From Xylographa opegraphella (taxonomy: Eukaryota): a stretch of 64,000 nucleotides of DNA. Location of the stretch: contig JALDZX010000050.1 of NCBI GenBank assembly GCA_022813865.1, positions 1-64,000 on the forward strand, in the 5' to 3' direction. Shown piece by piece: positions 6,159 through 60,064 of the stretch; positions within the stretch are counted from its first letter, which is position 1; every line of letters begins with the position of its first letter. The notes under the pieces are model-generated. The model did not search any database and was not told the DNA's origin. It saw nothing but the letters and a program-made list of their open reading frames with translations. Made by a program: the position numbers and the translations under genes.

Positions 6159-6945
6159 TTATGAAACAGTGTCATTGAACTCTTTGGCACCCTTAAAGTC
6201 GGAGTCAACCATAAAGATTTTATTGGTTTCCAACTTTTTTTGTATCACGCCCACTATAGCAGGCCAAACATCTTGACTCTGCGGGCCGATCCGCTCGGCG
6301 AGCAGAGCCAACACAACTGACTTGGAGTCTGAATTTATGCACATGCAAGCTGCGGATTCCGCGAGATACCGCCGTAGGGGAGAGCTCTTGGGTGTGTGTT
6401 CAAACCCTTCCACGATCAACTGAGGGTGGACACAGCTTAGGGTATTGACGTGGAACAGAACGATACGGTCGATAATATGGTTCCTTAGTGAAGTTATGCA
6501 CCATTTGTCGGCCATATAGTAAAGACGGTGATATGGTGTTTCTGCTGCAAGAAAGCCGAAGCCTTTCATGCTCTCGATACAGCCATCTTCTCGGTCAAGA
6601 TTCCCCGGTATTTCCGGAAGGGAAGATCGATACAACCAATGGCAGAATAGCTCGACGGCTACTGGATCATCCATTTCTTCATTCAGATTGACGTAGTCGG
6701 CCTTTGACTCAACAAAAGGCCCTTCCAGAAGCTTCGAAAAGTACGGTACGGTGTCGCAAAGCAGTTTCTTGTGAACAACATAATGTTTCCGTTCCGGCCC
6801 AACGAATAAACTAATTGTTTCGGTACCCAAGACTCTAGATAACCCAATGTAAGAACAGCTGAGAGATATACCGGGTCAAGGAAACTGCTACCCACCCACC
6901 AAGCAGTTCTGAGTCTGCATTCAGTTCCCGGGGAGTCTCCGGCAT
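6159..6945 (-). CDS. BTB/POZ domain protein, probable intron 6835-6895
   Basis: ETISLFVGPERKHYVVHKKLLC..PYFSKLLEGPFVES..LFCHWLY..LYYMADKW is the fungal BTB pattern. ATG 6945 with GTGGGT donor and TAG acceptor (phase 2). Exon 1 is less certain than exon 2. Confidence 0.85.
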
Positions 6946-11529: not shown

Positions 11530-12158
11530 AGCAGCTAAATGTAACTGTCTGGCTGTTGTAGAGGCATCTTCAATGGAGCATCAAATACTCGAATCATACG
11601 CAATTGCACTCAGATATCACGGTCCCGTCCGTCCTTGATCCGGCTGGATTATCGCGAACTCCCAATAAGGCTAGCATGATTCACGCGTAGTGCGGTACCA
11701 CTCTGCAATGTGCTTTATCGGCATTAAGTTACTCCGTATCCACTTAGTCCCATGTGGATCTCAACTCCTGCGGTCGTGATTTCTCTATGTGAATTGTTGC
11801 CGACATTCCCTAATCTAATAAGTATTCTTCTAGAGTGGTTCTGTTTGTCATTTCTTCGCAAACATATAAACGTATACTCCGCTTCATCTATGCTGTTAGG
11901 GTAGCCTGAAGGTAACACAGTCACTGTGAGATTCAAACAACAGAAAGAGGTTGAGAATAGCTGAATCTCATATTGAAAGTTCCTATTGTAATGTTACACT
12001 AGCTAAGGACAGCTATTCTCTCTTCGATCTACGCTCAAGCATGTTAAAGCTCTGTCAGGAGTTCCATTGACACCATCGTTCCAAATAGCCACAGAGGGAT
12101 TTCCTACCAGGAAATACCTATCCTCCCATATCATTTTTGGCTTTGGCGAGGATCAAAT

Positions 12159-12655
12159 TTAGGAGTGAAAGTGTTTATGAGCGATTTTGTTCTCCGCGAA
12201 GTGCTTCTCGCTCGGATTCCCTCCAGTATTTTTGTTGTCCGTCGTCTTCCGTGCCTTTTTGGCCGCTTCCTCGCGATTTTTGGCATCGTTGTATGAAGTT
12301 GGTCTTTTTCTCATGGATGCTTTCAATGCGTCGGCTGAGTATTCATCCTTATCTGTCCGAACCACAATGTCCCGCCTACTAAGAGAGGAAAGATATTCGT
12401 CTATCAGCGCCCGACGGTAATTTTGCATCGCTTTTCCATCCCAAATATCGCGCTTATAGCCGGCATAGTAGGGTCGGTCGTCAATGTCGCGCTCGTAAAG
12501 GTCGCCATAGGGTTCCGCGTCACGGACGTAAAGGTTGTTCTGCTCCAGGTCGAGATCACGGGCGTAGAGATCCTCGCTGTCATAGCCGGAGCCATAGGCA
12601 GTGACCACTGTGGCGATAGAGAGACCAGTCACGGCCAGGGTTTGAAAAGTTGCAT
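12159..12655 (-). pseudogene. Secreted repeat-propeptide protein (LYxRD repeats) with a 1-nt frameshift just after the ATG; pseudogene or assembly error
   Basis: ATG 12655 reads MQLFKPWP*. One extra base gives the signal-like MQLF(K/Q)TLAVTGLSIATVVTA, followed by LYARD, LYVRD, LYERD, YKRD and LSRRD units and a basic C-terminal peptide. Confidence 0.7.
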
Positions 12656-15600
12656 GATGCAAGGGCAACTGCTATTGAAATGATGATTGGTTGAGAAGGT
12701 TTCTGTTTGAAGAATATGGCAGGTGTATGTTGCTGGAGTCGAGTTTCGGTTATGATTGTTGCTAATTTAATGATTGATGTATTCAATCTGATTGTGAAGG
12801 ATTTCTGCTGTTCGAATGTATTTGATGGGAGACTTCTGTGTTCTTATGCTTGGATTTTCCCAAGCCTGGACCGTTGAGCAAACACTCGAGCTGCCGCTTC
12901 GACATTGAGCTTTCCCTTCCTGCTCAATGGTTTGTTGGTAAGCATTCTTCAACACAGCACTGCGGCGCCGCCTTTGAAAATCTTGCACAGGTGCAGATTC
13001 ACAAATCATGTAGAATGTAGAACTTTGTATTCCGCCGTCGGGGCATTCAAAAGCTCCACCATGACCAGCCTCGTTCAAACATCCAGGTAAGCTTGCAGGC
13101 AAAGCAACACAGCTGTTCTACAGTTTGAAACATGCAATATATCAAGCACCTTGGGTTCAACCAGTGGCTATCGAGAGGCTGAATTTGGAGCAACTTGAAG
13201 AACCACGATACTGCCAACCCATTATTGAGGCTAACCTTAATCGTAGGCACACAGCCATGACGCTAAGCTCAATTATGTATTGCTTTGCGCATTCCGAAAC
13301 TCGCTACGGAGTATATAGTACCACTTGATCTTCCGGCAATGCCATGATACTGTAGTGAAAGAAGTTGGTGAGCTAAAAGCTTTGAAACTTTTTGTCGTGG
13401 CGTTTCCGTATTCAGAGCCTTGGCATAGGAACAATTGAACCAGGAATGCTCAAGATGCTTCAGTGAGTGTGGTTACCATCGGACAGTTGGTACATAGAAT
13501 TGGCAGAGCGAATAGTCTTGAGCGGCCTTTCGAGGTTTGCCTCGTCGAAGCACCTTTGGTACTACCTCCTGGTAATTTGGTCACTCACGAAGATGGAGGG
13601 CACATTACTGCAGCATACCTCAAGTATGCAAAGATAGAGTAATATATCGCTAGTGATGCAAGGGGGAGAATAGCATTGAAGGGAGCATTCCACAGCGTTG
13701 TGGTATACCTTCGCCGTGGTTCATATTCGATACTTCATGCACAACGAGTCCCAGTCCGAAGATTGTCACCTTCGAATGGTCCCGTCGCAGTTCCCCCGTA
13801 GCGCTCCGAGCCATGTGTGCGCACTCATCAGCCTTCACCTACCCGTATACCAGACTGACGCCGCCTCCCACGTATCTACTTTCAGCAACCGGGTTTGAAG
13901 AACTGCAACCAGGATCGAGAACTTGATTATGCACAAAAGCAACAAGCAACATGCAAGGCGCGAACACGACAGGCATGAGAGATGCCCGGAAAGCTCGTAC
14001 AAAATACCACCTTGCCCTTTTGCCGACGTCTGCTGGCAATGAAGCCCTACAGAAATCCGAAACGATAGGTACGGAAGCGAAGCGAGCAAGAAGTCAAGGG
14101 CAAAGAGGAGCAGAACGCTCCATTCACACGTGCCAAACGACAACCGCAAGCTGAGAAAATTTCAAGACGCATGTGTGATGCAACATTGCTCCACCGCACG
14201 GGAACGGAGTAGGTCAACGAGCGGTGCGCCTCTACGCCACCGACAGAAAACCCAGGCAATGCATGGATGTGAGAAATGAGAAGCAGGTATATGTGCAGAC
14301 AGCTCCGACGCAACACTGGCATGCTCCCTGATGGGACTCGTCCGATCAGCTCGATGCACGATGCAACGATGGTAAAGCAAGAGAAAGATGCAGTTTGTTG
14401 CTTTTCCGGTGGCATCTCGAGATTGTTTGTTCGCGGACGGGTGATCGACGAGCTGAACGCCTCGGCATCGAATACGTAACTTACGCAGTACAGTACCCTG
14501 TATCTTATCTGGGATCCTACCATGGTCCATTGGAGAACACGCAGCGCCAAGGCTCATGCTGGTCAGCTCTGTCAGCAAATGGAGCCCCACTTCGAGCAGG
14601 ATTTGGGCAGCGTGCACAATTTGCATAACTACCCGCTTCGTCAGGGACGGCCTGGTAACCACTCTGAGAACGGATGAAGCGTTCCGAGTTCGTTCGCAAG
14701 CAGTTTATACTCGGAAACAGTGGACGGACTCCCAGCTCCACGCCTCTCTCTCGATTACGCCGACTTCATCGCCAGAAACGAGGGTTTAGACAAGTCACCC
14801 TCTTTTCCTGTGAGCAGGGCAGTTGAGCTGTGAGCAGTCAGCAGTAGGGCTCCTCGGCGTCTTATTTCGCGGCGGACCGAGCGACGTTTAGTGGCAACGC
14901 TAAGAGCTTCTATTTTCGTCGTTGGTGTTCGGAGTGTGTGGAGAGGCCCGTATTTCAGGGTCGTCATTATTACGGACTGAGGGTCCAACTCGCTGTTGGC
15001 CCCCGCGAGCTGCGTGGCCAGGCACGACCATCATGCGATGGCAGCCGCCCCTATTCCACGCAGTTGTTCTCAACGGCCCCACAGAGAGCAGCCACGGTTG
15101 AAAGGCGACTTTTCCCCCTGGGCCAAACGGTCGCCGCTCGACTCCTGAGGTACTCCGTATCTTTCCCCTGACCGTTTGCGACGCGTGCGGCAGCCATGAT
15201 ACATGAGCAAGACATGGACTAAACAAACGGAAAGAACGAACACCTTTTATAGTACATGGCACTGGCTCGAATAATGCAGAACATGGGGCGAGATGCTTCC
15301 GTATCAGCCCAGCCGATAGTAACAAAGAACACGTCTCGTAGGGTCCAAAGGTAGTGCTTCGTACCCCGCCAGAAGCGTTTCTTGGCGTTGTTCAGCTGGG
15401 TCAGCTTTAGCAGCCCACTACTGGAGCACAGCCCTACCTTATTTGGGTCAGAGCTTCAACGACTTCCAATTTGTCTCTTTAACCGAACCGCTGCGGCTCA
15501 GTGTCCCGCTAGGCTCGAACCGGCCACCGGCCCCTATCGTGTCCCCTATCCTCTACGCCCGGCCGGTCCAGGACCGTGAACCTCCCGGGCTTCCGTCGCA

Positions 15601-16709
15601 AACTTACCTTATGCTTTAAGATTCGGTGGCCTCGTATTTGTTGCACCACCATCTTTGGATGGGTGGACCATACTGGTGGCGTGAGGATAGTCGCTGGATT
15701 ATCAATTCCCTCTCGACCTATGGTATGAAGCACTGTGGCCAGCTCATCCGCCGTCAATGCAGGAAGCCATGGCACACGTGTGAGCATCAACATCGTCCGA
15801 AACTGACAGAAGCGAATATGGACGACGCGTGGGGAAGAGCACGACAGGACCTCGTTCGAGCGTGGATTGCATCAACACGAGCGTTGTAGGCATGAACTAT
15901 GAGAGTCAGTTTTCCTGCTGCTGGGATGTGGCCAGGACCGCAACGGCCAAACCGTATCTTGCTTCATCGATGCATCACGCGAAACACCACCTCTCCTCAG
16001 TCTGAAGCGGCACGATAGCTGAGCCGAAGCTTGCTTACCATGCCCTCCTGCCTTGACCAGTCGCTGCCATTTGGCGCAACAGCTGCGGGAGATGCGGAGG
16101 AGGACGTGTAGATTGTAGATTTTGTTTTCACGCCGGAAATGCCGCTACGCTCGCACCCTTCCCAGTCCTGGGCTTCACACCAGCGTCAAGGTTCCATTGA
16201 CGGCCGATCGCCCGCCATCATATTATTTAATTGCTTCTTCAACCTCCTTTTCCCNCCCCCCCCGCTCTTCTCCCTAGTCGACTGAGAAACTTGCCGGCGC
16301 AACCGCAACACTACCCCTAAACATCTCCCTTGTCGCTAGCAGGCGCCCTAAACCCCCATGTCGAGGCTGACTGTGCAAATGAAGCGTAGTCCGCAGCCAC
16401 CACCCGTCCATCTTGCTCCTCTCTCCAAAATCACCCTAGCTTTCCCAAGCACTCCCCTTCAAACCTCTCAAGCAGTAGTTGTATTTTTCGGTCCTTTGTT
16501 TCCTTCCTCAGCCTCCACGCTCGTTCAACACCTCGTCGCTCGTTTGGGGTCTTTGTCTTCTCACCCGCTGCTAGTGATCTGAGAGGTCGCTCGAACCTTC
16601 AGATTCCCAGTGCAGCTTCCCTTAAACCGGCTTCATCGATCGCGGTGCCCTACCTCGACTTCTTGGGTAGATCTCAAGATACGAGCCTGCGGTGCAGGCT
16701 TCAGGTACG

Positions 16710-19700
16710 ATGCGAGGTTTCGTGCCAGCCTTGGTGGTGGCTCTTGCAGCTTCGACGTCCGCTCTTCGATATGACCCGGCCGAAGTCGAATACAACTTGA
16801 ACACCAACCAGCAGGCGACGGATCCTGTCGACTACTGGGGACAGTGGCCTGGATCTCATACATACCATCCTTCGCCACCAAACTGGCGGTTCCCCTTCTA
16901 CACGCTGTTCCTGGATAGATACGTGAATGGAAATCCGTCTAATGGTATGTGTTTGCTTCCGTGTCCTCATGTGTACTGCCAGGCTAACCTTGACCCAGAT
17001 AATGCCAACCTGACAGCTTTCGAACATGATCTCATGCAAACACAACTACGACATGGTGGCGATATCCAAGGCCTTCTCGATTCATTGGATTACATACAAG
17101 GAATGGGGGTGAAGGCGATATACCTTGCTGGATCCCCCATGGTCAATCTCCCATGGGAGTCGGATGGTCAGCGGGATCGAACGTCCTATCCTACGTCTTG
17201 GGCTAACGCGACCGTGTCATAGGCTATTCTCCTATCGACTTCACCCTCCTCGACCGCCACTTCGGTACCCTTGCCGACTGGCAGGCGGTCATCGCTGAGA
17301 TCCATGCACGGGACATGTACGTTTTGATGGACAATACCATGTCGACCATGTCCGATCTCATCGGATTCGAGGGTTACCTTAATGCCAGTACTCCTTTCCT
17401 TACCTCGGAGCACACGGTGCAATATAAAACCGCTCGACAATACCTTGATTTCTCGTTCGGGAACGATTACAACGAAACTTGCGAATACCCACGATTTTAC
17501 AATGAGACTGGGTACCCGGTGGGTGACGATGTCACCAGTCAGCTGGTCGGTTGTTTCAATTCAGAGTTTGATCAATATGGAGATATCGAGGCTTTCGGTG
17601 TCTTTCCAGATTGGCAGAGAGAATTGGCGAAATTCGCCTCTGTGCAGGATCGTTTGAGGGAGTGGGTACCTTCGGTCCGGGCGAAGATTCAGCGTCATTC
17701 ATGTATCATGATTGCTCAGCTCGATATCGACGGTTTCCGTTTCGATAAAGCCACCCAGGTCACCGTTGATGCTCAGGGCGCTTTCGGAGACTATATTCGA
17801 AGCTGTGCCGCTCAGTTTGGCAAACACAACTTCTTCATGCCCGGTGAAATCACTGGTGGTAACACATTCGGCTCCATTTATCTCGGACGTGGTCGCTTGG
17901 CCGATCCAGCAATGCAGCCGGAAAACCTGACCACCGCTGTGAGGTTGACCAATACCTCCTCTGATAAGTATTTCATTCGAGATCTTGGGCAAAATGCACT
18001 CGATGCTGCGGCTTTCCACTATACCATCTACCGCTCCTTGACAAGATTCCTAGGAATGGACGGCAATCTAGAGTCTGGTTATGACGCACCATTGAACTGG
18101 GTAGACGGATGGAACGACATGTTGACCACGAATGATCTTATAAATGCGAATACAGGGGTTTTTGACCCGAGACACATGTACGGTGTCACCAACCAGGATG
18201 TCTTCAGATGGCCAGCCATCGTGAACGGCACCGACAAGATGTTGCTCGGCTTGTATATCACAACAATCCACATGCCTGGTATACCGCTTCTTCTATGGGG
18301 TGAAGAGCAAGCCTTCTATATCCTCGACAATACTGCAGACAACTACATATTTGGTCGACAGGCTATGTCCACATCAACCGCTTGGCAGACTCATGGGTGC
18401 TACATTCTTGGCTCATCATCTTTCTATAATTGGAACACTTCATATGTTGAGTCGGCTCTGAATGGATGTCACGACGATTCCGTCAGTCTCGATCATCGTG
18501 ATCCGTCGGCTCCAGTGAGGAACATCATTAAGAGCATGTACCAGATGCGGGAGAATTTTCCAGTTCTCAACGACGGGTTCTTCCTGCAACAACTGTCGAA
18601 TATGACTACCGACATTTATCTCCCGGGTAGTAACAATACGCCGACTGAGACCGGCATGTGGAGCACTGTTCGCAGCCAATTCGAAGGCGTTCAGGATCTA
18701 GCCGGCAAAGGACAGGGAGATCAATCTGTCTGGCTTGTTTACCAGAACGGTAATGCAACCACAAATTACGAATTTGACTGTAACAATAATGACTCCGGTC
18801 GGTCTACTACTGCTTTAATAGCTCCTTTTGATGCGGGAACCAAGGTCAAGAATCTTTTCTATCCGTATGATGAAGTCACCTTACAAGGAGGCGTCCACAA
18901 GCTAGGTATCAACGGATCGCTGAATGCTAACGGCTGTTTGAGCAACTTGACCATGAAAGCCTGGGAGTTCAAGGCGTACGTTCCAAGTGATAAGTGGGTG
19001 GGACCAGGGCCCATGATTACCAAATTCGTTCCAGGTCATGATGCTCGAGTCCTATCAACCTCGGATCCCGGGCAACAGCAGTCACTACCAGTCGAGTTAC
19101 ACTTCTCGCAAGAGATGGATTGCAACGGTATCACTAACGCCATCACATTCAATTCGACAACGGAAGATGGTAGCACTCCGAAAATTGATCCCGGTAGCAT
19201 TTCTTGCGCCAACGCTACCGACCCTGATGTTGTCCCTCTCACCGGGGCGCTTCCAACCGTGTGGGCGTGGAAGGCAACTCTCAACGGAGTGGCTGATGGT
19301 GTTCATCGTCTTACAATCACTAAAGCTCCCACCCCAGGTAATTCTAGCAACACCGGCTCAACAGACAATTTCTTGTTCCGTATCGGACAACCTGATAACC
19401 CCATGATATTCCCTGCCACAGCGAACTACACAAAGGCTCTCCTTCATCAGGACAGCAACGGTTTATATGTAACTCAGAAAGCTGCGGGCGCTGACTTGTA
19501 CCGATACTCCCTGAACTGGGGCTCGAGCTTTTCTGACTGGACGCCATACAAAGGCGGTAACGCTACTCTTGAACCGCAGGCGTGGTCTGGAACTTCATCT
19601 CAGGCGTGGACCGGGACGCATGTCACTATGCAATACTGGAGTCGAATGACTGGTAGCAGCGATCATCAACAGGAAGCCGACCTAGATGACACGATTCCAC

Positions 19701-22700
19701 AGAGACGATTTCCCCATCTTTTTTGGCAAGGCCCGTACAATCAATATGGCTTCGACGCAGGATTACCCAACGAACTCCAGCAGGATCCTATCACAGCACT
19801 CTGGAAGATCAACTTCATGTCCGAATGGCCTGCCATTGCTCAGGTCAATATCTGGGGAATGAATCCCGACGGACAGCCGGACCAAACGGGTGTGCTTGGT
19901 GATATTGATGCAGACAGTGTCCTTGATCGACTGCCACCATCCTCGCTCTCGGCAGTTGCCGTCAACTTCACTGCTCCTCCTCCGGTCCCGTACTTAGCTT
20001 GGCAGTTTGTGCTTAACGATGGCACATTCAGATATCAATTGCTCCCCATCGGTAACATGTATATGCAAATGGCTCTGTATTTCCTCTTCTGGCTTGTACC
20101 TGTTACCACGGGAGCGTTCGGAATCTGGGTGTTCATGAAATCTTTCTACAAGGTCAAGTTTAACCAAACGGGTATCAGTGCTGAGAGAAATTTCATCCCG
20201 TTGGCGCTTCGACGGAGATTCCGGAACCGACACGCTGAAGATGGAGAAGCGCTCAATCCTCTGATGAAACTCAAAAACAAATCTGGGATGATGCAATCCA
20301 AGACAGCACTTGCAGCTGGATTAGGCGGTCATCGTCGTATGGTTCTAATTGCAACAATGGAATACGATATCGAAGATTGGGCAATTAAGATCAAAATCGG
20401 AGGGTTAGGTGTAATGGCCCAGCTCATGGGAAAAAATCTTGGCCATCAAGATCTAATCTGGATTGTTCCTTGCGTGGGGGGTGTGGACTATCCCGAAGAT
20501 CAGCGGGCAGAACCTATGGTGGTAACCATTCTAGGAAACCCCTATGAGGTTCAAGTCCAATACCATACACTTCGAAACATAACTTATGTTCTCCTGGATG
20601 CCCCTGTTTTCAGGCAGCAAACCAAAACCGAGCCTTATCCGCCTCGAATGGACGATCTTGATTCAGCAATTTACTATTCTGCATGGAACCAGTGTATTGC
20701 CCTTGCTATCAAACGTTTCCATCCAGATTTGTACCATATCAACGACTACCATGGTGCGGTCGCCCCAATTCATCTATTGCCAGAAACAATACCCTGCTGC
20801 TTATCCTTGCACAACGCTGAATTTCAAGGTCTGTGGCCCATGAGAACGCCTAAGGAACGAGATGAGGTCTGCCAGGTATACAATCTTCCAGTTGACACTG
20901 CTGCGAAGTATGTACAGTTTGGTGAAGTCTTCAATCTTTTACACGCGGGTGCGTCTTACCTTCGTGTTCATCAGCAAGGGTTTGGCGCTGTGGGTGTCTC
21001 CAAGAAGTATGGAAAGCGTTCATACGCGAGATATCCGATCTTCTGGGGTCTCAAGAAAGTTGGCAACCTCCCGAACCCCGATCCGTCAGATACTGGCGAA
21101 TGGGACAAGCAATTGCCCAAGGAAGAAGACATCAAGATTGACCCCGAATTTGAGGGCAAACGTGTTGAGCTGAAGCGCCAGGCGCAGGAATGGGCAGGTC
21201 TCGACCAGAATCCCAAAGCTGAGCTGCTCGTATTCGTTGGCCGGTGGTCAAATCAGAAAGGCATTGATTTGATCGCCGATGTATTCCCCGCGGTTTTGGA
21301 AGAACATCCCGATGTACAACTGATCTGTGTCGGTCCAGTCATCGATCTGTACGGAAAGTTTGCTGCACTCAAGCTTGATAAAATGATGAAGATCTATCCT
21401 GGACGTGTTTTCTCCAAGCCAGAATTTACTGCCCTTCCCCCATACATCTTTAGTGGAGCCGAATTCGCTCTGATTCCTTCCCGTGACGAACCATTTGGGC
21501 TGGTCGCCGTGGAGTTTGGTAGGAAAGGCGCTCTTGGTATCGGTGCTCGGGTTGGTGGTCTGGGCCAGATGCCAGGATGGTGGTATACCGTGGAATCTAC
21601 GACCACTACTCATTTGCTCCATCAATTTAAGATGGCCATTGAAAGTGCTTTGGCCTCGAAACAAGAAACACGAGCCATGATGCGGGCTCGATCTGCCAAA
21701 CAGAGGTTCCCCGTTGCCCAATGGGTTGAGGATCTCGAAATCCTGCAGACATCGGCCATCAAAATACATTCAAAAGAAGCAGCAAAAGCTCATCACAGCA
21801 TGGTTCAGCATACAAGTGCCGGACTTTCTGGCTTTAACTCGAATGCAGGCTCGGGCTTCAGCTCACCAAATGGGATGATGACGCCGACTCTCCCTCGTTC
21901 TCGCTCAACTAGCCACGCCGACCTGCCATCTTTAGGAGCTCCACCCCCACTAGGCTTACATGGAAGGAACTCCAGCTACGGAAACCTCAACAGACTCAGC
22001 GCCTGGACAAAGGGAAGACCTGACAGCTATGCTGGTAGCAGAGCGGGAAGTCCTTCTCGGGAAAGGGAACAATCCACATTACCTAAAGGTGGAGTGACAA
22101 GGACACTATCACTTGGTATGAAGTCGGGTCCGGGCCATGTGACACAAGCTAGAGGTAGAAACCGGATGCGAAAAGGCATGGGAAGATCGAGCAGTCATCA
22201 GTCAGAGGCCGAACGTGATCAAATGGGTCAGGCAATCACAGACGTGGAGGAAGAAAGCGATAATGATATCATCGACATGTATGGAGCTGATGAGGAATAT
22301 ACTATGACTAGAGAACAGGCGGAAGCGATGCAACGAAGGGACCGACAAATAGAGGCAATGCCCACTCCAGCATTGCCGCAACTCAACGAAGACTTTCTGT
22401 CCCCACGTCAGGTCTCATTTGGAGGCGATCGACCGGCTCGTGATCTTATCAGACCGCCTGGTCCTCCATCTGAACCGTCTTCGGCGCCAGGCACGCCAGG
22501 TCAATTTCCGGGAGCATTCCTTGGTGCCGGAGCTGATGAAGCTTTACTACCGCCAATGGCTGCATTTGCCAAGTCTGCCAACCGCATGAGTAACTCGTCC
22601 ATGTTGAGTTTGGACTCTGTGGTTGGTGAGAAGAAGGACTTTAAGCTTCAGAAGGTTGACCCATTCTTTACGGACAGTACTGGCGAATATTTCAAAGCCT

Positions 22701-24434
22701 TCGAGGAAAAGCTAGCTACCCTTGATGGAAAGAATTCCGAAGGTCAAATGTGCATCGAAGACTACCTGGTCAAGAGCGAGAAGAAGTGGTTTGATCGATT
22801 CCGGAATGCTCGCCTGGGCCGTGCTCCCGTTGCAAGTCGTCCCCATAGTCCAGCTCCTTCGATGTTTCAAAAAGGAGGACACAGCCCAGAAGGATCAATT
22901 TTCAACGAGCCACTCGGAGATAACAGTAGCCAGGGAAGTACAGGAAAAGAGGGTGGTGATCAGTTCTTACTCGGAGAAGATTATCACCCACCTACTGGCT
23001 TGAAGAAGTGGATGCAGATGCGCATCGGGGACTGGCCACTATACTCTCTATTCCTTGCCTTCGGTCAAATCATTGCTGCGAACTCTTACCAAATAACGTT
23101 ATTGACGGGGACAGTTGGCCAGACAGCAGAGAAGCTTTACGTGGTCGCCTCAATATACCTGGTTACATCGATGGTGTGGTGGTTATGCTTTCGCTACTTC
23201 AAATCCGTTTACGTTCTCTCCGTGCCCTTCTTTTTCTATGGGTTGGCAGTGAGTGCAGCTCTGAGATACGTTGCGTTGAACGATGCTAACTTGTCACAGT
23301 TCTTCTTCATCGGAGTCACCTACTTCGTCCCGTCTGTAGTCGGAAGGGGATGGATGCAAAACATTGCGACCGCAATGTACGCTGTTGCTTCATCCAGTGG
23401 CTCGATTTTCTTCGCTCTAAACTTTGGTGATGAAGGTGAATACCCCTCGAAATCTTTTACAAATATTATGTGCTAATGCTGTTCCAGGTGGTGCCCCTGT
23501 CAAAGCTTGGGTTTACAGAGCTTGCGTAATTCAAGGAACACAACAAGCTTACGTTGTTGGTTTATGGTATTGGGGTTCAATCTTGACGAAAGAAACAGCC
23601 TCAGGTTACGCGAGCAACTACGTTCCTGGATCTACCAGCACTGTTACCAACTCCTACACCATGACTGCCATAACTGTCCCCATTGCCGTAGTACTTTGGC
23701 TCTCTGGTTTGATACTGTTCTTCGGCCTACCCGACTTCTACCGACAGGCACCCGGAGCGGTTCCCTCATTCTACTCATCGCTTGGCCGCCGCAAAATCAT
23801 TCTTTGGTTCTTTGTGGCAGTTCTTATTCAGAACTACTGGCTTTCTGCTCCATATGGACGTAATTGGGGATATCTCTGGTCCAGCAACCGTGCCGAACCT
23901 TGGCAGATTGTCCTTCTGTGCGTGCTCTTTTTCGGTGTTGTCTGGGCAGCATTCCTTTGGGTCTTCGGAATCCTCAGTAAGGATCATTCTTGGATTCTTC
24001 CAGTCTTTGCCATAGGCCTGGGTGCCCCCCGATGGTGTCAAATGCTCTGGGGTACATCCAACATCGGCCAGTATGTCCCATGGGCTGGCGGTCCTCTGGC
24101 ATCGGCACTGGTAGGACGTAGTCTATGGCTATGGCTTGGTGTCTTGGACGCTTTACAGGGAGTCGGCTTCGGAATGATCCTTCTCCAGACCTTGACCAGA
24201 ATACATATTGCGTTCACGCTTATTGCCGCTCAAGTTCTTGGCTCCATTGCGACAATGATAGCGCGAGCAACTGCACCAAACGCCATCGGCCCAGGAGATG
24301 TCTTCCCCGACTTCAGCGGCGGCATCGGAGACGGACTGAGTAAAGCTTGGTTCTGGGTCGCCCTCATCATGCAACTCTTCATCTGTATCGGATTCTTCAC
24401 CTTCTTCCGCAAAGAGCAGCTCAGCAAACCCTGA
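16710..24434 (+). CDS. ags1: Cell wall alpha-1,3-glucan synthase, 5 exons (introns 16945-16998, 17167-17222, 23249-23299, 23436-23487)
   Basis: Signal peptide, GH13 amylase-like extracellular domain (DGFRFDKA), TM helix, GT5 glycogen-synthase-like domain (KIKIGGLGVM, PSRDEPFGLVAVE) and a multi-TM C-terminus ending FFRKEQLSKP. All introns have GCTAAY branch sites. Confidence 0.97.
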
Positions 24435-40178: not shown

Positions 40179-40985
40179 TCTCTCACTACTACCACGAGGA
40201 CTAAACTGCCAACACCATTACGACGGTGACTACGGTACGAAAGATACATCCACTTATCAACCAATCCCCGCCCTCTCCAACATCCCGCCCCACACGGGCG
40301 AAACGTATCAGCTGAAGTTCTGCCCGTTTTACCCTATCGCCCCTCTGGACCAAAAGTCCACCAACGAACCGTGATCGTTTAGCCCGTGCTCTACAAGTCA
40401 CCGATACAAAGAGCAACATCACTCCTCACCCCACTTTCATCAGTCCAGGAAAGCTTGTTGTCGCACCATCCCACTGCGACAGATGCTCGCCGGAGATCCG
40501 AGACGAAGTACCGCCTCCGCTGAATCTTACGGGATCCACCACCATCCTCGACGGTCCCTCGAATTAGAAAGCAGATTTCGAATAGACATCTCCACAAAAA
40601 AGGCCTCTTCCCACCATTCTCGTCTGCCGAGCGCTATCGCTGTTGCCGGTCCCGACCTGGTCGCGACGTTATCCCTGAATCGCAATCGGTTCCGGAAGAT
40701 CTTCGTCACACTGCGCAAGGCTCTTGCTCGCCCAAATTTTGCTCTCTGGCCGCGACCCATGTCGCTCGCGACGTTGTGACGGCATTCGCTAGCTCCGACA
40801 CTGCATCAAGCACGATTCCCATCATCATTTGGCACTTTCCCCAGATTTCCAACCTTTGTCCTTTTCAGACGTGTGAGTACTCTGCAACGGTGGTGGGCCA
40901 TCGTGGAGCTTCCTTCCATCCATCATCGCATACCATTTCGAAACAAGAGGCGTGGGATCACGATCTCGCGGCACGCAGCTATCAC

Positions 40986-42473
40986 ATGCAACGCGCATCG
41001 TCAGCGTTTGGCCTCTCGAGCCTGCTGAACCCCGACTCGCCGTCGCCGGAAGGGGATCACGAGAACCGTGCCGAGGAATCGAGCATCGACGGCGGCATGG
41101 CGGCGGTCGGCACTCTCGCACCTCCTCCGCTGATCGGGGGCATGCACGCCGGGCCCGACGACTCCCGCCAAGATCTTCCACGACCGTACAAGTGCCCTCT
41201 GTGTGACAAGGCCTTTCACCGCCTGGAGCATCAGACGCGACACATCCGCACCCACACGGGCGAGAAGCCTCATGGGTGCCTGTTTCCGGGCTGCACGAAG
41301 AGGTTCAGCCGATCCGACGAGCTCACTCGACACTCGAGGATCCACAACAACCCGAACTCGAGGCGGAGCAACAAGGGCGGGCACAATACGGCGGCGGTGG
41401 CCAATTACGCGCACGAGCAGGCCGCGAGCATCTCGATGCTGCCGCCCCCGCGCAAGTCGTCGTCCCAATCGGCGCCGACCTCCACCATCAGCTCTCCGAA
41501 CGTCTCGCCCCCGCACTCCTACTCCGCCTACTCGACGTCTCAGCTACCGACGTCGAACCTGAGTCCGTACCACCACCGGAATAGCAACGGCGGGAGCCCC
41601 GGCTCGAACGCGTACCAGAATCCGCTGGACATCAACCTCCTAGCCGCCGCAGCTGACCAAGTCCAACGCGGCGACTCCTCGTACCCGTCCACCCACCTCC
41701 CCAGCGTCGTCCGCCACCACCACCACCACCACCACCACCACCAACACCCCCCGCAGCACCACCACCCCTACTACAACACGCCCCTGCCCTCGCTCCACTC
41801 GTACGCCTTCTCGAACTCGACCTCCAATGCCAACTCGCCCATCATGTCGCGCTCGCACTCGCGCGACTCGCACATCGAGGACGCGACGACGGAGGCGGCG
41901 GGGTCGCACAAGCCGCGCAAGCGGTCGCGGCCCACGTCGCCCGGCTCGACCGCGCCCTCGTCGCCCTCCTTCTCGCACGACGACTCCCTCTCGCCCACGC
42001 CCGACCACACCCCGCTCGCCACACCGGCCCACTCCCCGCGCCTGCGCCCCTACGCCCTCGCCCACACGTCCAACTCCTCCTCCTCGGCCAGCATCCACGG
42101 CGACATGCAGATGTCCATGTCCATGTCCATGCACCTGCCCGGCATCCGCCACCTCTCGCTCGCGCACGCGCCCGCCCTCGCGCCCATGGAACCTGCCGCC
42201 GAGGGGCCGTCGCCGTTTGGGTCGCTGGGTGTTGGTAGTGGCAATGGAGGTGGGGGCGGTAGTGGGCATGGGACGCCGTATGGCAGTTTTGGGCGCGAGG
42301 GACCCGGTCGTATTAGTGAGATTATGTCGCGCGCCGATGGCACGCAGCGGAAGTTGCCGGTGCCGCAGGTGCCGAAGGTGGCGGTGCAGGATTTGTTGGG
42401 TGGGGGCGGGTTTGCGAGTGGGGGGAGTAGTAAGGAGGGGAGTGTTAATGGGGGGGAGGAGGGGAGGTTTTGA
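40986..42473 (+). CDS. creA: Carbon catabolite repressor CreA/Cre1 (Mig1 family, two C2H2 fingers), intronless
   Basis: [16 protein letters not shown] start, [73 protein letters not shown] and the C-terminal [17 protein letters not shown]. Confidence 0.97.
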
Positions 42474-49840: not shown

Positions 49841-52800
49841 GACGAGCGAGGACTACTGGAGTACAGTGCAGACTTGAATTAGGTAGTACTAGAGTTCACG
49901 GAGATGTCTTCCTTCGAATTGTTTCCAACGAATGTATGCAGGTAGCCTGAAAGAAAACGAAGCGGTGGAACAATATTTATCGATACTAGCATTAAAACCC
50001 ATCGTCCAACGCGTCCTACTACGACCTGAGGGAGAGGGCAACGCGATCAACACTCTTTGCGGTAGTTCACCGCTTGGTGGGCCGGAACGTTCCACCCAGG
50101 CGTTTGGACGTTGCGCCGCGAGGATGGAAAGTGCCGGCGGCGGGGGTCCGATAGCAGGTGTGGCGGGCAGCGGGCAGCAGGGAGACCAAAGGGCAGGCGA
50201 GTGCGCAGAGGAAATGCAGAAGACGTTCTTACATAGCAGCAGGCGATGGCTTGGATGCTTCAGCAACGGTGGTGGTGGTCGGGGGTGGTGAAGACGTTGA
50301 AATCGGCGTAATTCACATGTTCCGTTCCTGAGGAGTGCTGGGAGTCTGGACAAAGCACGGAACAGTGGTCGACGGCGGGCGGGAGGCAGCAGGCGCCACA
50401 AGTGTGCAGTCTAGCTGTAAGCCGTTTCTTTTTCCAACCAGTTGCGTGGGTCGATTCAATGCTTGAACGGGCATGAGGTTTATGAAAGCGTCCGCTCTGC
50501 GTTCAGCAAGCTGGAGTGGAGAGCCTTGCCAATGGCAATGGCAACAGCGATGCGACGTCGAAGAAGGACGGCTTGCCGCTATTTACTCCGTACCACGGCC
50601 ACGATTGTCGTCTGGGTGTGGGGTGGTGTGGATCTTCGTCTCCACCAGCAGTCTACAGTTAATTGACCAGCGCCGACGCCGTTGATCACCCGCGGAACGT
50701 GTGCTCTTGCTCCCTATGAGGACGACGACAGATCTTGCCAAGTTGGAGACGCCGCAGCAGATCGGCCTGCACCCTGCATCCGGCCCCAATCCTTCCCCAT
50801 GATTGCTTGTCTTTCTGAAGCGCCATTCCGACGAATAACGGTCGGAAAACAAGCTCCGGACGTCGCCTCGGCATAAGATTGCCGTCCTTCAGATGGTGGT
50901 GTTTCACCTTTCGTCGTCCGGCGATCATCAGGGGGCTGCAATGGGCGTATCCCCTCCTCGTCTCCGTGCGTACATAGTAGATCGTTGCTGTGGCTGGACA
51001 TGTTCATGACAGCTGGATGCCACATTCGAGCCCGTCTCCAGCGGACGAACCGTAAAATGTTGCTGGTGGGATTCGGCGTTCCAAGCGGCCCCATCGCACA
51101 CGGCAGCAGGTGTAGCGTATTCCTCTACGCGGCCCAATGAGGTCGCCGGCCTTATTTGTGACCGCCTCCGAGGCTTCAAGCTCTGCGCCGGCACCGAACT
51201 TCCCAAACCAGAGAACTCCTGATATTCGACCGCTTCACCTCCGTCCACCGTCCTCGGCCTCTGTTGTTTCATGCCATCGCGTCTGCTACGTAGTACACAC
51301 GGGTGACTGCATGTCTTCATGGTGTGGGGGGAGAATTGCCTGCACTTCGCCACGTCGGACAATTGAACAGCTTCAGCCTCGAATCATGCACCAGCTTCCA
51401 TCTTGACGTCCACGACGGCCACATAGAAGTCAATGTGACCGGTACCTATCACCTGGCATGTCTGCAATCAGAGCCTCTTATACCGAGATGAGTCGCCGAA
51501 TCCTGGCGGAGATGGACGACAAGGGGGGAACAAGAGCCGGATGGACTTCGGCCTTCCGGCTACACCACAGCGGTGGCGATCTCGTCGTCCCGGCCTCGAG
51601 ACTCCCATATGCAGTCATGCGGCGAATAAATCCGTCATGCATCACTCGCTGCCGTGCATGACACCACATCAGCCCTCTGGATTTGTCCACTGCCATGGCC
51701 AGGGTATTGCCATCCCGAGGTGGCCGACTGGCTGCGCTTCCGTCTGTTTCACATGTGACGATATAAGAAATCACCTCTGCCAATGCACGATGCTATACGT
51801 GGTCTAGGAAGCTGTATCCATATCAGACAAGGATTTTGAACGAGCTGGGTTGTTGTACTTGCAACTACTCCTTCATCTTTGCTTCCTCCCTACTCTGGCA
51901 TCATAATCTAGTCTAAAAAATAAGAGTATAGAGCTTCTATGTACAATAGAAGTGCCATCATTTATATTCCATGAGCCTGGCTAACATGGCAGAGGCAAGT
52001 CAGGGCAACGGACCACACCTGTTACAAGTAGTACTCATTGTCATTCTTATATTCGGGCGTGGATGGCGTAGGTCGTATTGTACCAGCTATATATGTTGCC
52101 ATGCTGATCGGGCTCGTCTTGAAACGATATTGGAGAGTTGATGTACTGTTCTCATGAACTAACGTTCAGGTTATGACAATAGATCATATGCGCTGCGTAC
52201 CCAAAGACTAGACTTCTGTACTGTCCAACCGTCTTTTCCAATAGGAAAAACCGCGTCGCATAATACCTACAGTCAGCGTCCATGGCGCCTCGATGCTGAT
52301 ACTGAGGGCCTGACAATTCCAAACTTCCATACTTGCATTAGCTGTGTGATAAAGCATGAAAGTCTCTTCTCCCTATACGATTACGATAACACCTGGGAAT
52401 CCTGAGGACGCGCCACAGCTGCCGCAAACATTACCTGAGTGGCCACGGAGTAATTTGTGCCCGACTATCATGTCTGGAGACGTTCAACAAGAATATTCAC
52501 TCTCAAAAACACAATGACATGTGGCCGGTATCCGTGTAGGCTCCATCTACAAGGATCTATAGTGACTTTCCCCGAAGACAACGAAACACGCCGAGAACGA
52601 TTCTAGTGTGCAAATATGATGAATGACAGCGCTTTTCCCGTCCTCTTGGCTCGGATGTCCTCCCGAAGAGATTTCAGAGTAAGACCAATATCAGTAAGAG
52701 CTCAGATATGCCACATACAGAGCTGCCGAGTGAAAATCGAGGCTGATTCGCTCTTGGGCTTGCCTTGAGAGCCGCTTGGGATGTTCCGCACGCCACCAGT

Positions 52801-53353
52801 CAGTCGGCGGAGTGATATTTCTTTCACAGCAGGGGAAGTTCATCGCTTGTAGCAGACAGTCATGTGGAGGTAACAGCCTATGCTTTGCCGGCCGGCTTGA
52901 TTTATCTACTTCATGATTATGCTCTACTGTTCGGTTCAACTCTATATCCAGCTGCACAGTGTCGATCATCTCTGGAAATCCGAGTTGAGGGACTACTGAA
53001 ATTGAAACCTGCTTCTGAAGAGCGTCCAGCATTCATATTGAAGTGATTCCCTAGGCGCTCGTGGTACCATGGGTGAATATTGGAAATCGTACCACATGAG
53101 CATCCTTTGGGCCACAGTGATGCTGGGAAGTATGAGCGCAGTACTTTCTGCATGTGGCTATAAGTATGAGCTTTTCTACATCTCTGTTCTCGCATATGCT
53201 TTCAGTGTCTTCCACTAAATTAAATATCTCCACCAATTTTGACGTCCATGATACCACACTGCTATCACCGTCGTATTATTGTCTCAATACATCATTTATA
53301 TAAATTTACATCTCACGCAACAGAGCTTTCTAGGATCATAAAAGACGATCATC

Positions 53354-54394
53354 ATGCAGCATCCTAACATATCAATTCAAGATCCCAATCAACCCAAACA
53401 ATTCAAGCAGTGGAGGGAAACACTTCCTTTTCCGAATGTCTACTATAGCTTGCACTTTGAGAAATTGATGAGATATGAAGGTCAATGTATGTCTTTCCCT
53501 CCCGTGCAGCCGTGCTATGCTGCACGCCTACCTGCATGCCTCAACTGTTATAGCGGTAATCAACCCAGGCCCCATGCAGCGCCAATGTGCTATCTGGGAC
53601 TTTTCGAGCAGGAGGGTACTAAGAATACCCTCAACTGGGTTGCCAGCTTTCCCGGCACCGATGGTGACTTCCAGCAAAGATTTACGCGTGAGCTCAATCG
53701 CGGACATTTCAGCGCAATTGGTGAAGATGCTGCCGGGGACTATGACAGAAAACGATTCTTCAATGGTCTACCTGTTGCACATTGTACTTGTGAAAAGTGC
53801 ATCGCTTGGTTCGACGATTATACCCTCGTGTACAGTGTGCACGACCAAAAACTGATGATTGTGGGATCTGATGTGCCAGTCGGTCAGTTCGTCCAGGACT
53901 CTTGATTTGCTCCCACGAGTTCCACTCACATGCTCGCACTATACTCCGAATCCTGACATTTTGATACTGCAGACACCCAAAATCTGAAATACACTAAATG
54001 CCGAATGAAAGATACGAGACTTGGTGACGACGTCGAGTTAGTCTGGAAAAGATCGGTTGTTAATCCTGCCCATCCACTTGGAAGAAGGACAGAAGCGCCG
54101 GGTCGTACATACATTGAGGGTCCGGACTTTGAGGCGGTGGGCGAATATGTTGCATGGGTTTGGCGGGAGAAAAGGGTCGACTGCATCTATGTTGAGCAAC
54201 ATTACCCATGTTTTGATTGTGATAATACTGCCATAGTCGAGGGCAAGAAAGATTGGAGAGATGATAAGCGAGTGTTTCTCTGCTGCGGCTTGGCACTGTT
54301 GGCTGCGATGGTGGAGCTCTGCATGTCAGTTGGGTCGCGATTTCATTTTTTGATGTCTGCGTGCGTGCGTGCGTGCGTGTGTGCGTGCTGGTGA
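53354..54394 (+). CDS. Hypothetical protein with two tandem copies of an unrecognised domain (intron 53883-53972; probable in-frame intron 53487-53579)
   Basis: TATATAAA near 53297. A GTCAGT..CCTGAC..TGCAG intron joins the 53354 and 54005 ORFs in frame. Internal repeat F-x-A-(I/V)-GE-x-(A/V)A..KR..CxxC. Confidence 0.7.
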
Positions 54395-54816
54395 GGTTAT
54401 TATCGAGTCTTAGAGTGTAAGGCTACTGCTGGTGAAGTCCTCGATTTGGGTGTGGCGGATTTTCCTTTCGGAATTACTTGATTCCCTGTATGCATGTTGC
54501 AATATTGTTTGATTAGAATGTATCAATTCCAGAAGCCACATTCCCTATAGAGCTTCACGGCTGAGTTCACACATCTGGCAGTGTCGTGAAGAGCAAGCTC
54601 CCCGCATTCTGTAGCTATAAAGATGGAATTCCCCTCGAAGTTTCTTTGTAGCTTACAGCCACATATTTTCTTTGTACGTTCAGCTACTTTTCGAACACTG
54701 ATCATATCAACTCCACATCTTCCATCGTCTTAATACCACCTGCTACACTGAAGTCTCCAACTATATCCAAGTCTATCCATTCATACCCACCCTTACATCA
54801 ACCGTCCTCAACCATC

Positions 54817-55334
54817 ATGTCTTCAGCCTCGACACCGAAAGAGTCCCTCAACTACCAACTTATCTACAACGAACACACAAAGAAATTGGAAATGAACCCA
54901 ACATCAAACGGTCAGTCTCTCCACACACCCGCATTCATCATCACCCCTAACCTCAAGAGCTCCCTTCCCCCATCCTATAATCTTGCCCTAACAATGCTTC
55001 AAACACTGCGTCAGCGCAGCTCGAATACACCTCAGCCTGTATCGGCGGACCAGATCTTTCCGGCACCATCGGCATCTGGTGGAGCAAAACCGTGCCAGAG
55101 GCCGACTGCCCAAACGCAGCCGAGGTGGTGAAGAAGCACCTCGTCCAATGCAGTGAGCACCTCGATTTCTCCAGTTTCGCACAGCTTGGCGCACAGGTCG
55201 CACTGGATATTCAATGCAGGAGGCTCGGTTCTGTTTACGTGAAGGCGTGTGGTTGCGATGCATGTAATCAGAATGCGAGGGAGACTGGATTGTTGCTCCC
55301 TACGGGGCGTTCGTGGGCCGATCGGCCTCGTTAG
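54817..55334 (+). CDS. Hypothetical single-domain paralog (intron 54911-55014)
   Basis: TATAAA near 54616. A GTCAGT..CCTAAC..TCAG intron gives NYQLIYNEHTKKLEMNPTSN/AQLEYTSAC..FAQLGAQVALDIQCRRLGSVYVKACGCDAC. Confidence 0.7.
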
Positions 55335-56441
55335 GTTGGGGCGTTCGTTGCGCTGCGGACGATTGTTGGCGTCGAGTTGGGAGCTGGGAGTTCATTGAGC
55401 GTGCGTGCGTACGAGTGAGCTTCGTTACTTTTGTGCTTGGGCCTTGCTTTGAAGTGCTTTTGAGGGTTGAGGGATTGAGCCATGGTTCGGTGGGATTTGT
55501 TGGTTTGCGTGTGTATCTTGATACACTATTTTTCTTGAAGACTTGTAGTCATAGGTGAAACTCACTGGGATTTGGGCTTGCAATTACTTCACAGATCTGG
55601 ATTTCTGGGTCTCTGTAGAGGGAAGAGTTTTGGATGAAGGTTCTGTGAGGTTGGATGCTTGGCATATGACGCTCGCTTAGGGTAGATTCTGAGGTAAGGT
55701 AGTCCTAGATATTTAACTAGATCTCGGTTTAGGGTCAATCTCAGACCCTATGAATAGATTATGTCTGACCTCAATAAGTTGGTTGGTTGATCTGGTTTTC
55801 ATCTATTTGTCGTGCTACACCGTTCCTTGACAACTGGTCAACTTACCCGAATCACGCTGTGAGGTGACCTCGAAGACCGCTTCACAGTCGTTGGGGCTTA
55901 GTGCGCCACGCCTGAGGGACTGAGGCAATTTCACCGCTCTGATTCTTCGAATCTCTACCAATCGAGGAGTCTTAATAAAGGTCCCGCGTGGTTAATGAGT
56001 TTTCAATCTTTCATGCCTCTGTCGTGTTACACTGCCTTCCTGATGATTTGTATTCATATCGAAAGTCGTGGTGTGCGGTGGCCTTCACAAATACCACGCA
56101 GAACTTTGGGAGACGGTTTTCTGAGATTCATTGGATATCACGTATCTATGATGTTACACTGTTCTTCCGTTAGCTTATGTTCATTGTCGGATCTCATTGT
56201 GAGGCAGGCTTTACAGTTACTGTCAAGAGCTGTTGATGCCGTGAAGCGCACCAGACTTGTCGTGCTGTGGGTATAAAGATGGGCTCTTCCCCAGCTGTGT
56301 CTCTGCAGCTTCAACTACCTTCCATACTCATATCAAGCTGTCCTACTAATTACGACCTATCTCACTTCTACAGAAGAATTGGTCTACTGCTACCACACCT
56401 ATCTATCATACCTGCTCGTACACATCTTCAGTCCATCCATC

Positions 56442-56872
56442 ATGTCCTTGGCAGCCCCGAGCAACGTAGAATCAGTCGATTATATTCTTTGCTATAATCC
56501 AATCACGCGTTTGCTCTGGTGGGACGATGGAACAGCAGAAAGTGAGCTGTTCCTGGATTCGCACGACCCCCGATAGTCACTGGCTCGCAAATGTGCCGAT
56601 ATGTAACCCGTACTAACCAATGATGCACAGAGCTCGCTGCGTACGAACAAGATAGATCATGGGTCAAAATCAAAGTCGATTCCAGTTCCTGCGATTCACT
56701 AAAGCTTGAGTGGAAAGTGTATGGGCCACTTAATGGGTATAGACAAAGCGAAGCTTGGCTTCACAAGGAGACGTTCGAACGCGCGGGAAAGGTAATTGCA
56801 GAGGATAGTGCCTTGGGAAAAATCAAGGAGGTCTGGGTGCTGCTCAACCCTTGGGGGCCACCTCAGCGCTAG
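56442..56872 (+). CDS. Hypothetical single-domain paralog lacking the terminal CxxC (intron 56542-56630)
   Basis: TATAAA near 56272. A GTGAGC..ACTAAC..CAG intron gives DYILCYNPITRLLWWDDGTAE/KLAAY..LKLEWK..TFERAGKVIAEDSALGKIKEVWV. Confidence 0.65.
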
Positions 56873-58217
56873 AAATAGCACGAAGAGTCCCCGTAACAGG
56901 GCCACTCGTACCCTTTTTCTACCGACAGGATCAGATCTCAGGTTGTGTACTTGCGGGTGGGGGATCAGGCCTTCCTTATGGTCCTTCCTGCTGAGATTGG
57001 CTTGCGGAGATTTTGGGAAGCCCTGATGGTAGAGCGTTGTGTACGATATCTGAGCCTGTATTCTATTATGCGTGCATGCTGGCTTGTGGTTTTCCTGTAC
57101 CAAACTCTACGAGCTGGGTACGAGGTTGGGTCACGATTGTATTTGATTATTGATATTCATGTATGCAAGCTGTTTCACTTTGCAGGGGAACTATCACTAT
57201 GAGCACAAGGGAGCCAGAAGGGAGGGCGGCACATTTGGTAGTCGAATCTAAGCATTGATCCACTATGCTACTACTTTGGTGAAGTAAGAGTAGTCTAACC
57301 TATGATCTTGGCTCTATATAGGGTTGTCTTTCCTGAGATCTTCTGGTAGATAGAACAATCTTTTTGCTCCGCTGATGACGGACTCGTACCATTTTCCTGC
57401 TAGCGATCCTTGCACGACTTCCTGGCACTCTATCTTGACATGACTTTTCTACTACAGAACCCTGCTACTATAATGCCTCTTCACGAGCTCTTGCCACACT
57501 CATCCCCAAGACAGCCCCACACAATCCCTCGTCGTTCTTGACCCCAACCAGTCCACCAGCCGTGACACCCATCAACTCTCCGTCCATACCCGAGTCCAGT
57601 ATCAACTTCGTGATATTAGCGCCGTCATGGGAGTCAAACTGATCACTTAGGCTACAGCATCGGCTGATCTGTGCATGAAATTGCTCAGTGAAAATAAAGA
57701 TACAGAGTTGGGAGGATGAAGGGGTGCTTCTTAGACGATAATCTCTATGCTATGTGAAATTGTGTTCTTGTGTCGATTGCCAGAAATACAGAATCCGGGC
57801 GGCTGAATGTTTGATAATCCGTCAATAGTAGTTCCGTGGATGGGTTAGTATCTGTGTGCGTGCGAGCTCGATGGATGTCTTCGCTTATGGCTTGGTATGC
57901 GAGCTTGTGATAGAGACTCTGGGCTTGGGTACCACTTGGTAATAGCTGATTGGTTTTCTGTATTCATGATGCTTTGGGCATTATTCTTGATAGTTGTTAG
58001 TATCACCAAGAACCATTCCATTTGCTGAGACGATTAATGACCATTATAATGCATACGCTTTAGACGGCACTATATTCATTGGCTAAGGATATCCTAGGAA
58101 GCCTACCCAGCAAAAGCGATTCATCACGGCATGCTTCATAGATCCTCCTATATATAACGCCCACAAGCCTCGCGTGTAGAGTTCTGACAATGGTAACACG
58201 AGCTGTTTCCCTAGCGA

Positions 58218-59406
58218 TCAATTTCCAGGACCCGGATCTCTGACTTCGTAAACCTATGCCAGCTCCTCAGTTAGCTTAATTATCGCACAGGCCGAATTTA
58301 GCATTCGCGTTGACATAGAAACAGTTTTCTACGCACCAGCTCTCTCCAGCCTCCACCTCCAAACATCGCCTTGCTCTCGCCCCGGTCTTCAAACCCAAAC
58401 TTCCCCATATACCAACCCACCAGCTCCGGATGCGCCAGCAGCGCTATCCGATCCGCTATACCGCTCGACTCCATCCGCTGCATGTACGCCTTCAGCAGCG
58501 TCTTGCCGAGCCCGAGATTTTGATGTGTAGGCAGGATGCAAACAGAGTGTATGGCAATAGTGCGGCCAAGAGGTCTGTGACCTGAAACTTCAGTGTCATG
58601 TGTATCAGGAGGCGGAGCAGTGGGTAGGTGGTCTGGATGCGAAGGGAGGCTTTGGGGGATCTCCATGCTGGCGTCCGTAACGGCCGGGGCGTCCGTGAGT
58701 GTGCCTATGACGTGGCCAAGAAGGACTGCCCGGTGAGAAGGCGTGCTACTATCTGGAGGGCGGGCCGCGTCAAAAGCAGCTTGCGTTGCTGGTGTGGGAA
58801 GAGTGGTGGTAGATGAGAAGAGGCCAAGAGAAAGGGTTGGGCAAGTGGTGAGGCGGTAGATGAACTTGTAGAATCAGTATGGATCAGGTTGTTCAACTGG
58901 CGGAAAGCAGGGGGATTTGCTGCCATCAAAGTACATTTACAGAACAAAACAGACATATGAACGAGGCATTTCCCGCCACAAGCAAGAAATAGAAGTGGAA
59001 TCATTCATACTATGCGAACAAACGATAAGATTACGCATGAAGGAAAACCGGCGCTGTGACAGTACAGCCTTCCTTGCAGCTGTTGAGTAAGTGAAACACA
59101 CACCTTTTCTCTGGAAGCTCGCTCGTGCTCTGGAAACGTGGCGGCCTCCAATGCTACACAAGCCTCCAAGTCGGATAACGACAATAGCTGAACATACGGA
59201 TGTAGTTTGATCTTCTCATCGCTACGCCTCAACGTATTCGACAGCTGCTGCTCTCTGTCGTCAGACTCATCTCGGACAATGGTGAACGCATTGCTAGGAA
59301 GCTGCTCTTCGTCCTGGGAGTTGATTGGTCGAGGGGTCTTGGCCTCCGGGCTCTCTGTCAAAGTAAGCTCCTGAGACTGGCGGTTGGGGAAAAGGTCTCG
59401 AGGCAT
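58218..59406 (-). CDS. GNAT-family acetyltransferase similar to polyamine N-acetyltransferase Paa1, 3 exons (introns 58865-59103, 58254-58336)
   Basis: LEAATFPEHERASREK/FIYRLTTCPTLSLGLF, GHRPLGRTIAIHSVCILPTHQNLGLG (acetyl-CoA motif) and FGGGGWREL. Confidence 0.88.
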
Positions 59407-60064
59407 CGCATTTGAGATGAATAATATTGCAGGTGTAAGGATATATAGATCATCCTGGAAAAGGGACTGTGGGTGGCTGAATCAGCATTCGAGGCGGACT
59501 GTTGAATTGATATAGCGCCGGCCGAAAGTGGCGTCATCCACGGAATGGATCAAATGTGTTCTTGCCAGCAGTAATGGATCGGTTTCGTCCACTGGGCCGG
59601 CTCGAGGTCTGGACTGGTGTGGTTGCTAGTTTTATAACGAGGTGTCGACTCGACATGCATTGCGCTGGGAGCCTACAGCTCGGTGTAGGCTGCATAAGTC
59701 ACTCTGCTAGCAACGTCATTTACTAATCACACTCTCTCGAGGCGGACAAGTTCACTGTTCGCCGCTCGTTATTTCGTACATAGCTATTGATGATTTCAAC
59801 TCAGTTGCCAAATATCGATACTTCAATCGCTTCTTCACCAACACTGCAGCCATCATCGGCATCTATTCGTGTAGGATAAGCCACGCACCACCGTCTGGAT
59901 CCGAAAGCTGAATTTCAGTATCCGTATTACTCGACCATAGTACTCTGTCGAGCTTTGAAGTTTGCAGGCTCATTCAGCGATACTCCTACGACAGAGACAA
60001 TCATTCTCGTCCCAGCTTACATTCCCCCCGGGATCACCATTCCCTTGACAGCCAGTTTCTCATT

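Follow-up and report, generated by a model that had tools for sequence, protein, structure and literature searches.

A tandem array of a fast-evolving, apparently undescribed domain family beside DDI1 in the lichen fungus Xylographa opegraphella

Xylographa (Lecanoromycetes, Xylographaceae) is described in PMC9098629 and PMC6234878 as a genus of wood-dwelling lichen fungi. In a stretch of 64,000 nucleotides from Xylographa opegraphella (hereafter the window; positions 1 to 64,000 of contig JALDZX010000050.1, assembly GCA_022813865.1, genome size 24.7 Mb) we have analysed a tandem array of three co-oriented genes, whose spliced products of 285, 137 and 113 amino acids (genes 1, 2 and 3) are built from one small domain that occurs twice in gene 1 (modules 1 and 2) and once in each of the other two. 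The array is flanked by a minus-strand Zn2Cys6 transcription-factor gene on one side and by a GNAT gene, then DDI1, on the other (Table 1). An earlier examination of the letters without database searches (the sequence-only reading) had counted four modules; four intact modules are present, but the total is five, one of them a pseudogene, and this fifth module and the tail of gene 1 had been overlooked.

Table 1. Features of the array and its surroundings (window positions)
Feature	Position	Strand	Remarks
TATA box, gene 1	53299..53304	+	TATAAA 55 nt before ATG
Gene 1 exon 1	53354..53486	+	Module 1 start; N-terminal hairpin with His34 (codon 53453)
Intron 1	53487..53579	+	93 nt, GTATGT..GCAG, phase 1, in frame, stop-free, no CTRAY
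Gene 1 exon 2	53580..53882	+	Module 1 remainder (Cys113/115/118) and module 2 hairpin (His132)
Intron 2	53883..53972	+	90 nt, phase 1, CTRAY branch site
Gene 1 exon 3	53973..54394	+	Module 2 remainder (His222, Cys225, Cys228) and tail
Gene 1 tail, probable stop loss	54269..54394	+	CGA at stop column of X. vitiligo orthologue; ~40 codons into (GCGT)n repeat
TATA box, gene 2	54616..54621	+	TATAAA 201 nt before ATG
Gene 2 exon 1	54817..54910	+	His20
Intron 3	54911..55014	+	104 nt, phase 1, CTRAY branch site
Gene 2 exon 2	55015..55334	+	Cys110/112/115
TATA box, gene 3	56272..56277	+	TATAAA 170 nt before ATG; ten bases identical to gene 2 box
Gene 3 exon 1	56442..56541	+	Ile at His column
Intron 4	56542..56630	+	89 nt, phase 1, TACTAAC branch site
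Gene 3 exon 2	56631..56872	+	Stops short of Cys cluster
Fifth module, pseudogene, gene-2 type	57439..57828	+	In-frame stops at 57640, 57676, 57739; 6-residue gap; TATATA at 57315
Possible sixth, more decayed relic	52454..52768	+	Second or third distinct locus with three of four profiles

Scored alongside alternative GT-AG pairs on independent homologue gene models, each of the four proposed phase-1 GT-AG introns came out best of the forms tried, and the intron position is common to all modules; therefore whole exon-intron units were duplicated. Intron 1 had been called the least certain and is the only one without a CTRAY site, but it is still the top splice form against the X. vitiligo protein P0010 (score 347, vs 338 with the donor 6 nt upstream and 308 when retained), and BLAST against P0010 places a 31-residue (93-nt) gap there. 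Since this intron is in frame and stop-free, its retention is possible. The introns (89-104 nt) are longer than the ~50 nt given as typical of the window, a typical length that rests on three examples only (54, 51 and 66 nt). The TATA-like box noted for each gene was found in all three cases, and these boxes are three of the nine TATAAA sequences on the plus strand of the whole window. The proteins are acidic (isoelectric point, pI, 4.8-6.3) and, as had been stated, have no obvious signal peptide, the best 10-residue Kyte-Doolittle mean in the N-termini being at most 0.88 (a hydropathy heuristic only).

The homology of the modules was hardly apparent within the window, where only the m2-m3 pair stood out (z 8.3; the other five of six pairs, z -0.2 to 2.8). 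When hidden Markov models (HMMs) were built without the subfamily under test, all 11 modules examined beat all 1000 of their own shuffles, the weakest being window module 1 (7.9 bits vs 3.9), and profile-profile comparison of the m2 and g2 subfamilies (probability 98.6, E 9e-16) bore out the claim that the modules are homologous. A search of 1.84 billion representatives with a four-exon profile gave nine matches at E <=0.001, six of which are full-length members, namely two ENA proteins and four proteins from X. pallens, X. trunciseda and X. soralifera (the last with two adjacent loci); the other three were repeat-driven and were dropped. A seventh member, P0010 of X. vitiligo, was found as a cluster member, and as it is likewise a two-module protein orthologous to gene 1, the description of that gene as a domain dimer stands. 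The known members MCJ1314729.1 (two-module, as window gene 1), MCJ1434587.1, MCJ1380152.1, MCJ1380153.1 and MCJ1398769.1 are annotated as hypothetical only; these Xylographa proteins belong to the same family and lie at the same locus beside DDI1, but the identity is only 31-46%.

The family had been reported as unrecognised, and no characterised family was matched here either. At the curated cut-off or E <0.001, Pfam gave nothing for the seven window pieces, the six true homologues or P0010; none of the seven pieces was matched in NCBIfam or PADLOC, and the best PHROGs hit had an E of 0.096. The TRASH-type family PF24273 aligned with the CxxC stretch of module 2 below its cut-off (E 0.0035; 17.9 bits, cut-off 27), but the match covers 27 residues only and the orthologues do not share it. 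No paper on the family was found by member accession or by genus. The domain family is real and apparently undescribed, and the array has so far been detected only in Xylographa.

In the gene tree the modules cluster by array position and not by species (support for the groups 66-100, and 47-77% within subfamilies), so the duplications predate the compared Xylographa species. The accessions of family members lie two to four numbers from that of DDI1, on equally long contigs, in all four named species with members, and the contig of the ENA member pair is equally long as that of an ENA DDI1. As judged from these accessions, the synteny of the array locus beside DDI1 is conserved in the species with members. 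The window DDI1 is 82-87% identical to Xylographa DDI1s and 69% identical to that of Lambiella insularis, Lambiella being the nearest relative outside the genus by this gene. In three other Xylographa species and in Lambiella, DDI1 was present and no family member was found.

Against this yardstick the family diverges quickly. All eight orthologue pairs are 31-46% identical, while the DDI1s of those species pairs are 87-92% identical, and the Kimura distance of the family is 7.5-14.3 times that of DDI1 in the same eight pairs. Even in a comparison of two near-identical genomes, 4 of the 92 residues of module 2 differ, against 3 of 394 in DDI1 (Fisher p 0.027; one pair). These sequence comparisons show speed and not positive selection: the family evolves very fast. 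An orthologue in Lambiella would be expected, by the extrapolated rate, to be only 14-19% identical, so the lack of matches beyond the genus does not speak for a recent origin; because of the same rate, the low identity among paralogues (14-28%) is not evidence of great age. The label "old" given by the sequence-only reading is therefore not upheld: the four lineages do predate the split of the compared species, but since orthologues within the genus have already diverged this far, most of this divergence could reflect rate. The family is a clear case of how "orphan" status can arise from rate alone.

Co-oriented paralogues, a shared intron and a pseudogenised copy are together the picture of birth-and-death evolution. 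The fifth module retains four blocks in the correct order and in a single frame, with a chain score of 54.2 (intact gene 3, itself part of the training set, scores 56.5, and background on either strand reaches 33.5 at best), and it accounts for the top three non-array tiles among 3642 with the all-module HMM. Its nearest relative is P0003 of X. trunciseda (z 5.4), whose accession is two numbers away from that of DDI1; P0003 could be the positional orthologue of this relic in intact form. The tail of gene 1 is likely the product of a lost stop or of a sequence error, and for that reason its hydrophobic stretch should not be taken as a membrane anchor. Upstream of gene 1, the candidate sixth relic has borderline scores and, when the all-module profile is used, is not among the 14 best tiles, and is suggestive only.

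Module 1, module 2 and gene 2 share a His at the first hairpin turn and, following the last strand, a C/H-x(1-2)-C-x2-C cluster, i.e., the four conserved Cys/His ligand positions are kept in three of the four intact window modules. Among the 11 aligned rows the His column holds His in eight, Cys in one and Ile in window gene 3, and is absent in one short model. Gene 3, noted earlier as lacking the His and the CxxC, misses all four ligands together, and in its X. soralifera orthologue Cys replaces His and the knuckle reads C-x3-H-x2-C (read by hand). For a four-ligand structural site one would expect that His and Cys can replace each other and that the ligands are lost together. The suggestion of zinc binding is thus strengthened by the conserved ligands and altered in one respect, the ligand positions being four and not three. 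The domain probably contains structural zinc, a single ion that, held by the hairpin-turn His and the Cys cluster, would staple the N- and C-termini together.

The predicted fold runs from an N-terminal beta-hairpin through a strand, a long two-stranded hairpin, two short helices and a further strand to the Cys knuckle; the order of elements is predicted to be identical for two subfamilies, and the tip of the long hairpin would vary in both length and sequence. The hydrophobic core is conserved: invariant and near-invariant columns are mostly hydrophobic, with W58 in all 11 modules, and the conserved polar positions are few (Y17, D100, K/R105). The nearest small hairpin-helix-strand motifs, those of the IscB/IsrB N-terminal domain and of the pneumococcal PhtA/PhtD histidine-triad zinc domain, scored at chance level and are without the long central hairpin and ligand set of this domain. 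A highly diverged nucleic-acid-binding or mobile-element fold of known type, masked by rate and a large insertion, is unlikely. The modelled shape appears unlike the solved structures compared, and we regard the chances that it is a new fold as about even.

The anatomy and evolution of the array, as read from sequence, are very probably as described above, and the arrangement itself is of an ordinary kind. Several features fit a binding scaffold that is non-catalytic: the core is conserved and the surfaces change fast, none of the polar residues is invariant, there is no secretion signal, the promoters have TATA boxes, one gene encodes a fused dimer, and genes turn over. We propose that the array may encode tandem copies of a small acidic cytoplasmic domain in which a stable core carries fast-changing binding surfaces; the TATA promoters would suggest regulated expression, and copies would be gained, fused and lost. 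Such proteins might, as the favoured role, recognise or attack foreign agents that enter the cytoplasm or eat the hypha (a grazer, microbe, virus or non-self nucleus), in analogy to defence proteins that other fungi keep in the cytoplasm and that have no signal peptide. According to PMC6238071 and PMC4704728, cytoplasmic proteins without endogenous ligands protect other fungi from fungivores. Among these, fruiting-body lectins, tamavidins and CCTX2 resemble the array in having no signal peptide, a cytoplasmic location, paralogous copies and repeated domains; the likeness is one of analogy and not of membership, as neither a profile nor a fold of lectins or biotin-binding proteins was matched and a putative zinc site is present here. 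Adjacent divergent genes govern allorecognition in the account of PMC10890737, where the Podospora het-B locus likewise consists of neighbouring genes that diverge rapidly and encode intracellular proteins. This conflict role, argued from analogy, is tentative. The full combination is doubtful as a whole: an undescribed fold, its two ends joined by a His/Cys3 zinc site, that would serve this genus as a scaffold for recognition or defence inside the cell, would diversify rapidly and vary at the hairpin tip, and whose genes would fuse domains and turn over continually.

Several points weigh against this interpretation. The rate yardstick is a single conserved neighbour and not a genome-wide background, and relaxed constraint would give an identical rate picture. 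The splice forms were judged against predicted gene models from other species and not against transcripts, and the model of module 1 is not confident (predicted local distance difference test, pLDDT, 26-73 by block). Unlike het-B, the array and the six flanking open reading frames (ORFs) scanned have no HET domain, nor was an NLR domain found in them, and the one near-conspecific comparison (one pair; one genome per species) gave 96% identity and not divergent haplotypes. Gene 3 and module 1 of the window have long branches in the tree, which with the probable stop loss of gene 1 and one dead copy look like decay in this species. Such decay favours a dispensable endogenous role, perhaps that of an adaptor which acts in development or is induced by stress and which, under weak purifying selection, drifts quickly; we hold this to be as likely as the conflict role, and short of probable. 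The relic, the stop loss, the ligand loss and the long window branches would all agree with it, and TATA boxes suit regulated genes of any kind. Lineage-specific genes of Neurospora are likewise described in PMC10684091 as clustering as paralogues, few of them essential. The conflict role is favoured where frames, intron and core residues are retained in at least five genomes at 0.9-1.5 substitutions per site, and where change is in excess, with radical substitutions, already between near-identical genomes.

The Cys/His cluster could alternatively be the functional site of a zinc or copper buffer or chaperone, for which its presence in three of four intact modules, the two additional conserved Cys of the gene-2 subfamily and the acidic pI might speak. 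A single site per ~120 residues in a large folded domain, the retention of fold residues in gene 3 where every ligand is lost, and the failure of any metallothionein or chaperone profile in Pfam to match make such a role distinctly unlikely. A small metalloenzyme family, to which the few conserved polar positions besides the cluster could point, is more improbable still, as a site with four ligands is suggestive of a closed, structural one, window module 2 has Val in place of D100, no polar residue is invariant, and gene 3 is without all ligands. Tandem arrays confined to a single genus are common among fungi, but it is seldom demonstrable that such an array is a single family of folded domains, has orthologues in synteny and a confidently predicted model, and shows no apparent match to known structures. 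For a candidate new fold, the array is a target of small size and probable solubility. If selection and function point to conflict, the array would provide a molecular lead on the dealings of lichen fungi with grazers, microbes and non-self; otherwise the family is an ordinary and dispensable one.

Elsewhere at the locus, the X. soralifera DDI1 model P0137 (548 amino acids) has an N-terminal extension of ~150 residues that is in part similar to the translation of the minus strand at 59376-59515, upstream of the window GNAT gene; the extension is probably a gene-model artefact. The minus-strand ORF at 6159-6875 has a weak BTB/POZ match under the cut-off (E 0.0017). Another at 12159-12671 (-), of 170 amino acids, begins with a hydrophobic stretch, contains LYxRD-like motifs in repeats and resembles a secreted repeat propeptide protein, with no Pfam match at E 0.01. 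Four large ordinary genes have translations that look like SMC2 (1877-5273, minus strand), ORC4 (8935-11580, minus strand), an alpha-1,3-glucan synthase (16671-24434, plus strand) and a CreA-type C2H2 factor (40524-42473, plus strand).
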